From a virus, in the UHGV virus genome UHGV-1445333: a stretch of DNA of 24,885 bases; one strand, written 5' to 3'. Shown here one piece after another: positions 17,770 to 24,573 of the stretch. Positions within the stretch are counted from its first letter, which is position 1, and each line of letters starts with the position of its first letter. The position numbers and the translations under genes are program-made. The notes under the pieces were generated by a model that searched no databases, was not told the DNA's origin, and saw only the letters and a program-made list of their open reading frames with translations.

Positions 17770-18048
17770 TCAGGCCTCGAAGAATTCGCCGTTCTTCGGG
17801 GCTTTTTCTTTTGTCAGCATTCTGGCTACTTTCTTAGCCAGTTCCGCCAACTCCTCGTCTTCAACACCCCATTCAAGAACAGCCAGAAGCATTCCCATTT
17901 TTGGGATAAAGCTGTCTTTCCATCGCGAAATTTGCGATTCATTGATCCCTAATGCATCAGCAACCTTTCGCTGACCACGTACAGCAATTCGATTCAGGAT
18001 GTTGCTTGTAATTGCATTCGCTTTCTTGCGAGTACTTGTAAGTTCCAT
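17770..18048 (-). CDS. cII: CII transcriptional activator, 92 aa
   Basis: Track ORF trimmed to ATG 18048; upstream TAAGGAAATACTTACAT matches the lambda cII leader I recall; SQISRWK...[13 protein letters not shown] core matches lambda CII. Confidence 0.85.
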
Positions 18049-19928: not shown

Positions 19929-20234
19929 ATGACAGTAGTCATTACATATCTGGCTGAGGATAACGCCAGAAATCGCCGCAGAGCACGCAGACAGGCTCAA
20001 CGTGAACAGGCAATGCAAGAGCAGCGACTGGCGCGAAAAATTGCGCTAAAGCTCTCTGGTTGCGTCAGAGCAGACAAAGCAGCATCACTCGGAAGCCTTC
20101 GCTGCAAGAAGGCAGAAGAAGTCGAGCGTAAACAGAACCGTATTTACTACCGCAAGCCACGCAGTGAAATGGGTGTGACTTGTGTTGGTCGCCAGAAACA
20201 ACGCGGAAAATCAATTCCAGCTTATTACGATTGA
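19929..20234 (+). CDS. N: N-type antitermination protein, 101 aa
   Basis: First pL gene after nutL; N-terminal arginine-rich motif (NARNRRRARRQAQREQAM) like lambdoid N proteins; SD GGAGG 5 nt before ATG. Confidence 0.75.
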   Translation: MTVVITYLAEDNARNRRRARRQAQREQAMQEQRLARKIALKLSGCVRADKAASLGSLRCKKAEEVERKQNRIYYRKPRSEMGVTCVGRQKQRGKSIPAYYD

Positions 20235-20642: not shown

Positions 20643-20826
20643 TAAAAATCAATGGTGTGGACAATTCAAACGATGCAATGGATGCAAGCTGCAATCGGAA
20701 TGTATGGTTAAGCCTGAAGAAATGTTTCCTGTAATGGAAGATGGGAAATATGTCGATAAATGGGCAATACGAACGACGGCAATGATTGCCAGAGAACTTG
20801 GTAAACTGAACAACAAGGCTGCCTGA
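20626..20826 (+). CDS. ral: Ral-like restriction-alleviation protein, 66 aa
   Basis: 66-aa product MTTTIDKNQWCGQFKRCNGCKLQSECMVKPEE... matches my recollection of lambda Ral in sequence, size and position (pL operon distal to N). Confidence 0.55.
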   Translation: MTTTIDKNQWCGQFKRCNGCKLQSECMVKPEEMFPVMEDGKYVDKWAIRTTAMIARELGKLNNKAA

Positions 20827-20849
20827 TGGTGGCCTTTATTTTCTTATTT
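20815..20849 (+). terminator. Intrinsic terminator-like hairpin after ral
   Basis: AAGGCUGCC-UGAU-GGUGGCCUU (9-bp stem with two G-U pairs) followed by UAUUUUCUUAUUU. Confidence 0.5.
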
Positions 20850-20862
20850 GAGAGGAATTAAT

Positions 20863-21027
20863 ATGTCATCAATCCGCTTAACTACGAGAATGAAAGAGGA
20901 AATCGCTCGTAACGCTTTAATTAAGTCTGGGGTTTTCACTGAGCTTGAAGAAGTAACAAAGTTAAAGAACCAGCTTGCACTTGACGCCAGAGTTATTGCG
21001 TTTGGCGGTAAAAAGAAAACTGAGTAA
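20863..21027 (+). CDS. Hypothetical 54-aa protein, in frame with the next ORF
   Basis: Read by hand: ATG at 20863 with SD GAGG (7-nt spacer); ends at TAA 21025-21027, immediately followed in the same frame by the GTG that opens the 152-aa ORF. Confidence 0.45.
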   Translation: MSSIRLTTRMKEEIARNALIKSGVFTELEEVTKLKNQLALDARVIAFGGKKKTE

Positions 21028-21486
21028 GTGGATCAGTTATCATCCAAGTTGGTAGCTATAAGTGAAGAACTTGGAAAGATGGGATGTTCATTTTACTCAT
21101 ACGATTTTCGTTCTACTTCAATTTATCTGACTGTATCTGGCAGAAGGGTTGGATGGCATTCATATGGGAAAGACGGCAACGGCGAAGATATATTTCTCCC
21201 TACTCCGATAAAAGATAAATGCATGTTTGACGCAGAGCACGAAATAACAAAAAGGTTTGATGAAATCTGCTCATTACAACAAAAACTTGAAGCCAAGAAA
21301 AAGGATATCGAATCAAATGTATGGACTGCTTTAAACTCAGTCACAACAGTTAAGCGACTTATTGAGGTTTGGCCTGAAAGCAAAGAGTTGCTACCAAAAG
21401 AAGCAGATAAAGCAAGTACAGCACTTCCTGCTTTACGGGTAGAAGATTTGAATAAGATGATTGGACTTCCTTCCGAGGCCGCATAG
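21028..21486 (+). CDS. Hypothetical protein, 152 aa (GTG start; possibly the distal part of a TAA-interrupted gene)
   Basis: ORF-track product; no convincing SD at the GTG or at the first internal ATG; same frame as the preceding 54-aa ORF. Confidence 0.45.
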   Translation: MDQLSSKLVAISEELGKMGCSFYSYDFRSTSIYLTVSGRRVGWHSYGKDGNGEDIFLPTPIKDKCMFDAEHEITKRFDEICSLQQKLEAKKKDIESNVWTALNSVTTVKRLIEVWPESKELLPKEADKASTALPALRVEDLNKMIGLPSEAA

Positions 21487-21502
21487 TCGGCCTTTATTTT
21501 TG
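21476..21502 (+). terminator. Intrinsic terminator overlapping the stop of the 152-aa ORF
   Basis: AGGCCG-CAUAGU-CGGCCU (6-bp stem) followed by UUAUUUUUGG. Confidence 0.55.
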
Positions 21503-21523
21503 GCATAAACAACAGAGGATAAC

Positions 21524-24408: not shown

Positions 24409-24573
24409 ATGAGAGGACTTGCATACAATCCCGGCATTCTTCCGGCAGAAATGATTATTCGCCAACGCGTAAAGCCAATGCCATCGAGAGAGGAATTACT
24501 TAAGCGAAACTCGTTTCCATCAGTGAATCAAAACAAATATCTGAACGCGATGTTGCGGAGTGGGAAGAAATGA
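24409..24573 (+). CDS. Hypothetical protein, 54 aa
   Basis: Track ORF 24256-24573 trimmed to ATG 24409 with SD GAGG (8-nt spacer). Confidence 0.4.

Follow-up and report, generated by a model that had tools for sequence, protein, structure and literature searches.

The stretch of DNA analysed here (24,885 nt, in the following called the window) comprises most of the genome of a P22-like phage (HK620/Sf6/Sf101-like), including head, lysis, nin, replication and immunity genes. The gene order of the early-left (pL) region is cI-like repressor, a 122-aa ORF, N-like antiterminator, an 88-aa ORF, ral and a gene of the Nmad5 family, followed downstream by a Y8K6-family ORF, a 52-aa ORF, DUF2528, kil, erf and an anti-RecBCD gene. 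The Nmad5 gene, a dispensable, non-structural accessory gene on the + strand that closely follows N and ral in the pL operon, carries one in-frame TAA codon in the window and is the subject of the present analysis. The positions of the features are compiled in Table 1.

Table 1. Features of the Nmad5 locus and of its surroundings in the window
Feature	Position	Strand	Basis
N-like antiterminator	19929-20234		phrog_271
ral	20626-20826		gene order
Terminator-like hairpin with T-run in the ral/Nmad5 gap, left edge of the mosaic module	20815..20846	+	sequence
Shine-Dalgarno motif GAGAGGA for ATG 20863	20850..20856	+	sequence; anti-SD duplex; homologues
Whole Nmad5-family gene, 207 codons and stop, with one in-frame TAA	20863..21486	+	Pfam PF18757, CDS alignment
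N-terminal fragment ORF, 54 aa and TAA	20863..21027	+	ORF list; Pfam Nmad5 1-51
Ochre codon TAA (Glu55 to stop), G-to-T at 21025	21025..21027	+	homologue comparison
C-terminal remainder, 152 codons and TAG	21028..21486	+	Pfam Nmad5 54-206
Second private change, GCT to ACT, Ala155 to Thr	21325..21327	+	63 alleles, 35 homologues
Terminator-like hairpin with T-run overlapping the gene end, near the right edge of the module	21475..21504	+	sequence

The module at 20843-21516 was found by megablast in 216 phage records and in 211 of the 5,426 complete E. coli genomes. With approximately 4% of these genomes the lambdoid Nmad5 gene is common, and it always lies early in the pL operon. The megablast matches to most phages start at 20843 and end at 21516. 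The hairpins at 20815-20846 and 21475-21504 have the 3′ half GGCCTTTATTTT in common, and no promoter-like site was found between them. By its position between two hairpins that share GGCCTTTATTTT, the Nmad5 gene looks like a cassette which is exchanged between repeats. Moreover, a distant homologue was seen early in an operon headed by a cI-like repressor in a Providencia prophage (L105, Logan ERR317138_318), and the early-left placement of Nmad5 is therefore conserved across genera.

Open reading frames and translation signals

An earlier note on this DNA, made from the letters alone, had described two ORFs of 54 and 152 aa in the same frame with one TAA between them, and its coordinates were exact when compared with the sequence and the ORF list. 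Starting from the ATG at 20863-20865, 54 sense codons are read before the TAA at 21025-21027. The GTG at 21028-21030 is in the same frame, which stays open for 152 codons until the TAG at 21484-21486, and stop and start abut (TAAGTG, 21025-21030) as they do in translationally coupled pairs.

The Shine-Dalgarno (SD) motif of the 54-aa ORF, which the note had rated as good, forms an anti-SD duplex of -6.0 kcal/mol at a spacing of 5, and this GAGAGGA is unchanged in every aligned homologue. The GTG had been judged to be without a convincing SD of its own, which agrees with a best anti-SD pairing of -3.0 kcal/mol located 17 nt upstream. In the intact protein this GTG simply encodes Val56, and it is no evolved start. 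Both the TAA and the GTG lie inside a predicted RNA stem in which the GTG is base-paired, and the mRNA around codon 55 (20990-21110) has an unusually stable predicted fold (-33.1 kcal/mol, z = -3.5 versus shuffled sequences). The fold is essentially equal for both bases at 21025 (-32.4 kcal/mol for G, -33.1 kcal/mol for T). Due to the fact that the RNA structure is nearly the same in the GAA allele, it has not evolved for the stop. As a side observation, the intact allele reads GAGGAAGTG at 21022-21030, where an SD-like GAGGA abuts the in-frame GTG, and the G-to-T change destroys the GAGG. No tRNA gene, suppressor tRNA genes included, was detected in the window. An antisense ORF at 21123-21512 was rejected as spurious, its family match reaching just E=0.004 over 24 residues.

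Family models, fold and homologues

The 54-aa product matched positions 1-51 of the Pfam Nmad5 model PF18757 (E=1e-12, 49 bits), the 152-aa product positions 54-206 of the 206 positions (E=4.8e-50, 170.9 bits), and the fused translation positions 1-206 (E=5.7e-70, 236 bits). The curated HMM threshold of 27 bits was used as cut-off for membership of the Nmad5 family and is exceeded by both pieces as well as by the fusion. The same partition was obtained with phrog_1965, where the 54-aa piece corresponds to positions 2-52 (E=4e-15) and the 152-aa piece to positions 56-208 of 208 (E=6e-59). Because consecutive parts of one Pfam model and of one PHROG are matched, the two ORFs belong together, far beyond chance. 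A single uninterrupted Nmad5 polypeptide is absent in the window, the TAA parting model positions 1-51 from 54-206, and the window copy is an Nmad5 member by descent, but disrupted.

An AlphaFold2 model was calculated for an intact homologue (P0002, 95% identical) with an alignment of 35 sequences (mean pLDDT 84.9). It forms one compact unit, in which three helices (residues 8-22, 24-47 and 50-72) are followed by a small sheet (about 86-122), a long helix (127-158) and short helices at the C-terminus. Within the helix 50-72, residue 55 is situated five residues from the start, directly past a conserved GG turn. The 54-aa fragment accordingly covers the first two helices and the initial turn of the third, and it holds seven family-invariant residues (R5, L6, A18, K21, A39, R43 and G48). 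The structural relatives found in BFVD in unrelated phages are single chains of about 180-250 aa that align over the full length with TM-scores of up to 0.77.

In related phages, where the note had suggested a comparison with intact homologues, a single 207-aa ORF with GAA in place of TAA was found. In each of three isolated and viable phages, APC_JM3.2, HK542 and mEp235, the gene is an intact CDS of 624 nt (APCJM32_51, HK542_033 and mEp235 gp37, respectively), and in E. coli genomes RefSeq lists a single CDS for it under the name 'Nmad5 family putative nucleotide modification protein' (e.g. WP_096169157.1), a name which applies to a gene 99.5% identical to that of the window. The intact genes of lambdoid and P22-like phages and of E. 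coli prophages, of which these four are examples, are 97-99.5% identical to the window over all 624 nt and have the same SD, start and stop as the window copy. Their place behind N (and ral) in the pL operon is the same too, and so is the surrounding mosaic module with terminator-like hairpins at its borders. They differ from the window copy, which has TAA at codon 55 and ACT at codon 155, by GAA and GCT, respectively. The window and the three isolated phages could be aligned base for base, the critical codon being GAA versus TAA. As is characteristic of a nonsense pseudogene, the orthologues have a sense codon one base away from a stop at this site, and the frame of the window gene is colinear with theirs (0 indels over 624 nt).

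For a wider sample, a pattern scan in which codon 55 was left free returned 90 IMG/VR stretches. Of the 95 matches collected from the other loci fetched, 94 had GAA and one GTA at codon 55, with no instance of TAA, and all 63 distinct intact alleles carry G at the base equivalent to 21025. For a 61-mer with the TAA at its centre, none of the 186 places found in complete E. coli genomes and none of the 75 phage records gave a 100% match, and the exact TAA-containing sequence was not found in IMG/VR or in JGI metagenome contigs. A scan of genome_contigs gave no hits at all and was therefore uninformative for this element. The 152-aa protein is recorded in the gene-position index on one contig only, namely the window's own source, the gut-metagenome scaffold COST17-1_SAMEA4545404_METAG-scaffold_1226 (25,110 bp; ENA ERZ28576014); a 6,459-base stretch fetched from this scaffold agrees in every base with the window sequence that begins at 18028. 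Judged from the sequence collections searched, the TAA allele is private to this scaffold.

Beyond the close relatives, each of 35 diverse homologues (33-95% identity) is encoded as one ORF of 205-251 aa; they derive from E. coli, Cronobacter, Klebsiella, Enterobacter, Raoultella, Lelliottia, Pantoea, Erwinia, Providencia and Serratia. Homologues with two separate ORFs, which according to the earlier note would have refuted its reading, were not seen, a single ORF being present in every case. Column 55 is variable, with E, K, D, A and R among the 35 homologues and V in the one GTA locus. Two independent genes were rejected, as one HMM and one fold span both pieces and the homologues are never split. 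Likewise, a translationally coupled pair is expected to show a conserved two-gene arrangement in which each gene has its own family; here the relatives have one gene and the pieces share one HMM.

Several apparent counterparts of the two pieces on other contigs were discarded. Exact matches of the 54-aa product proved to be truncations at contig ends that continue with G or GA and represent the GAA allele. The contigs of at least six independent assemblies (L098-L103) end 1-2 bases past codon 54 (…ACTGAGG or …ACTGAGGA); these ends are in part explained by the exact 54-aa look-up, which selects for them, and they might mark a recurrent branch point of the assembly graph. Two database proteins of 152 aa from the same GTG (P0008 and P0065), which at first resembled recurrences of the stop, had another origin. 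P0008 (L104) goes back to the loss of one nucleotide from a T-run, its GAA being intact, and P0065 (L105), from Providencia, apparently to a frameshift in an A-run. In both cases the gene caller took the next available start.

Exactly 207 aa are encoded by 82 of the 90 complete copies (IMG/VR and related). Independent disruptive lesions are present in about 5-9% of the prophage copies, with more than 90% being intact. The lesions comprise an independent nonsense allele with TCA changed to TAA at codon 3 (L040, IMGVR_UViG_2537561946_000003), a truncation or rearrangement near nt 450 (L036 and L060), an insertion of 47 nt (L062) and homopolymer frameshifts (L104 and apparently L105). Occasional loss of the Nmad5 gene is therefore normal. 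In two further IMG/VR copies (L054 and L081), GAG is changed to TAG at codon 205 and the protein is three residues shorter; this is probably a harmless length variant, the lost residues being disordered in the structural model. Several of the stops seen (E55*, S3* and E205*) are G:C to T:A transversions.

Origin and consequences of the TAA codon

The earlier note had offered two explanations for the arrangement, either that a gene of about 207 aa had been inactivated recently or that a deliberately attenuated product is made by stop codon readthrough. The first was supported by the intact 207-aa homologues, which at 97-99.5% nucleotide identity have GAA for TAA, and by the open remainder of the frame. 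The comparisons show that the locus is one accessory gene of the Nmad5 family with 207 codons, that its stop is private and that its homologues are intact. We consider it probable that the gene has effectively been knocked out by a private change of GAA to TAA at Glu55. A single G-to-T transversion at 21025 would have converted GAA (Glu55) to the ochre codon. Ribosomes would start at ATG 20863 and terminate at the UAA past 54 residues, and the 152 codons beyond the stop would be open only because the event is recent. At most, a 54-aa peptide of two helices would be formed together with traces of other products. These may be a C-terminal fragment made by reinitiation at the adjacent GTG, which would miss two helices and seven invariant residues, and full-length protein made by basal or suppressor-mediated readthrough.

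We infer a loss of function of this allele, and it is best regarded as a null allele or as an assembly error. By analogy with lambda, the nonsense mutation would not be expected to be polar on the downstream genes kil, erf and abc2, because pL transcription is N-antiterminated; as in lambda, the N-modified RNA polymerase would read through the two hairpins and resist Rho. Since column 55 tolerates Lys and other residues, an ochre-suppressor host would be predicted to restore the product. The allele thereby resembles the classical ochre mutants and nonsense pseudogenes of phage accessory genes, which also have a single-base stop, an undamaged frame and a dispensable gene, the sole contrast being that it originates from a natural gut metagenome (or is mis-called) and not from a laboratory screen.

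A second difference was found downstream of the stop. Relative to the 63 distinct intact alleles, precisely two bases are private to the window copy, the nonsense change G163T and G463A (21325). Nucleotide 463 is G in all 63 of these alleles, A155 is invariant across the 35 diverse homologues, and every family-invariant column is kept in the window except A155, which is Thr. A ratio pN/pS of about 0.36 was determined among the close alleles, from which the Nmad5 gene appears to be normally under purifying selection. The non-conservative change A155T downstream of the stop fits decay after inactivation, with the restriction that two events prove nothing. Over the 2,345 well-sampled positions of the window, four private bases and no private indels were counted, two of the bases lying in the 674 nt of this gene versus two in 1671 nt elsewhere; this excess, considered as a possible sign of relaxed selection or of error, is not significant, 2 versus 2 being too few to decide. 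The other two private bases are located at 24546 and 24633, just downstream of the anti-RecBCD (abc2-like) gene, where the window has C and 40 and 25 homologous loci, respectively, have T.

The allele could instead be an artefact of assembly or sequencing, the phage truly having GAA and an intact gene, and the T at 21025 being a consensus error or a minority variant. The source is a metagenome scaffold (ERZ28576014, SAMEA4545404), the TAA allele is unique among several hundred copies, and the second unique base affects an invariant residue of the same gene. Moreover, G-to-T changes are typical of oxidative damage or library artefacts. However, four private bases without a private indel show that the contig is not generally error-ridden, on an overall view its structural and replication ORFs have plausible full lengths, and real sporadic lesions, including the TAA at codon 3, occur in prophages of isolate genomes. 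An error at this position is considered unlikely for these reasons, and the preferred explanation remains a real nonsense allele.

An attenuated product made by stop codon readthrough, the second explanation of the earlier note, was not borne out, the stop being private, UAA and placed inside helix 3 of a single fold. A stop that is private to one scaffold offers nothing conserved to be called programmed, and programmed readthrough was rejected. A conserved stop, a leaky stop or context or a phage suppressor tRNA, and a complete short unit with a separate add-on module are what such a system should display. In this case a stop was seen at that codon in none of the 95 matches from the other loci fetched, the UAA stands before a G in a window that contains no tRNA gene, and the structural relatives align over the full length. 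In E. coli, UAA is the least leaky of the stops, and both release factors recognise it. To our knowledge, it is neither the stop of the known bacterial or phage readthrough cases nor a known readthrough codon in enterobacteria. The A1 coat extension of Q-beta, an example of programmed stop codon readthrough, likewise has an in-frame stop with an open coding sequence behind it; in the known cases, however, the stop is conserved, a leaky UGA or UAG, and followed by an extra domain, whereas in the window it is a private UAA in the middle of a helix of one domain.

More broadly, the gene could be a working but tuned-down one that is expressed in two pieces or in attenuated form, either by readthrough of the UAA or by reinitiation at the GUG with reassembly of the 54-aa and 152-aa products. 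Abutting stop and start codons of the type UAAGUG permit termination-reinitiation in bacteria at low efficiency, and the geometry of the site is compatible with it. The variability of column 55 (E, K, D, A, R and V) suggests that a residue inserted by readthrough or by a suppressor would probably be tolerated, and a lower dosage could be tolerated or favoured in view of a distant Nmad5 homologue whose cloning was reported to be toxic. This reading is nevertheless very improbable: there is no conservation of the private TAA, UAA is little prone to readthrough and no suppressor tRNA is encoded in the window, the GTG lacks an SD and is base-paired, and the break falls within a helix of a single fold for which no natural split version exists among the homologues.

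Equally improbable is that the ochre codon is real and adaptive, in that a knockout or strong down-tuning of Nmad5, which is expressed early, spares the phage or the lysogen from toxicity or from recognition by a defence system (e.g. Tmn); residual protein might then be made by reinitiation at the abutting GUG. Least credible of all is a selected knockout, i.e. a real nonsense mutation favoured by a cost of the intact protein to the lysogen or by its sensing by host defence: a missense mutation in a Dhillonvirus nmad5 gives escape from Tmn, that gene was apparently toxic to clone (PMC11846954) and about 5-9% of the prophage copies are disrupted independently, but the deletion of nmad5 gave no Tmn escape (PMC11846954), the Dhillonvirus protein is a longer and distant relative, selection mostly keeps the gene (more than 90% of copies intact, pN/pS of about 0.36), and a single occurrence cannot show selection. 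No feature of the window speaks for a selected loss or attenuation.

Known relatives and annotation of the locus

The family name Nmad5 derives from a gene-neighbourhood association. The model of the window protein matched a 'Nucleotide modification associated domain-containing protein' of Escherichia phage C130_2, the sequence identity to such fold-level relatives being about 20%. A sequence search of the PDB with the Nmad5 protein gave no match at E 0.1 or better, and no match was obtained with PADLOC. The only experimental work on Nmad5 found in the literature concerns nmad5 of the Dhillonvirus phages SMS22 and SMA8, which could be deleted without killing the phage (PMC11846954). In these phages, a Lys-to-Glu change in nmad5 led to escape from the Tmn defence, the deletion led to no escape, and the gene was apparently toxic to clone (PMC11846954). 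The Dhillonvirus gene has the family name in common with the window gene; it differs from the latter in being longer (residue 296 is mentioned), in its location near a capsid gene and in the kind of mutation studied, which was a K-to-E missense change and not a nonsense change (PMC11846954).

The locus carries a nonsense allele that is private but otherwise ordinary and belongs to a known family of accessory phage genes, or else a single-base assembly error. For annotation, one disrupted Nmad5 gene (a pseudogene or possible sequence error) should be recorded, and neither two small genes nor a recoding site. The biological weight of the TAA allele is small, and the result chiefly protects the annotation. 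The dispensability of Nmad5 in lambdoid phages is confirmed by natural null alleles of this kind, and one family member has been linked to sensing by Tmn. A further point of annotation concerns phage APC_JM3.2, in which the intact counterpart of the gene (MG197996.1 APCJM32_51; L001, 2554-3177) is annotated as 'Smchd1'. This is apparently a transferred misnomer, the gene being Nmad5 according to Pfam and RefSeq.
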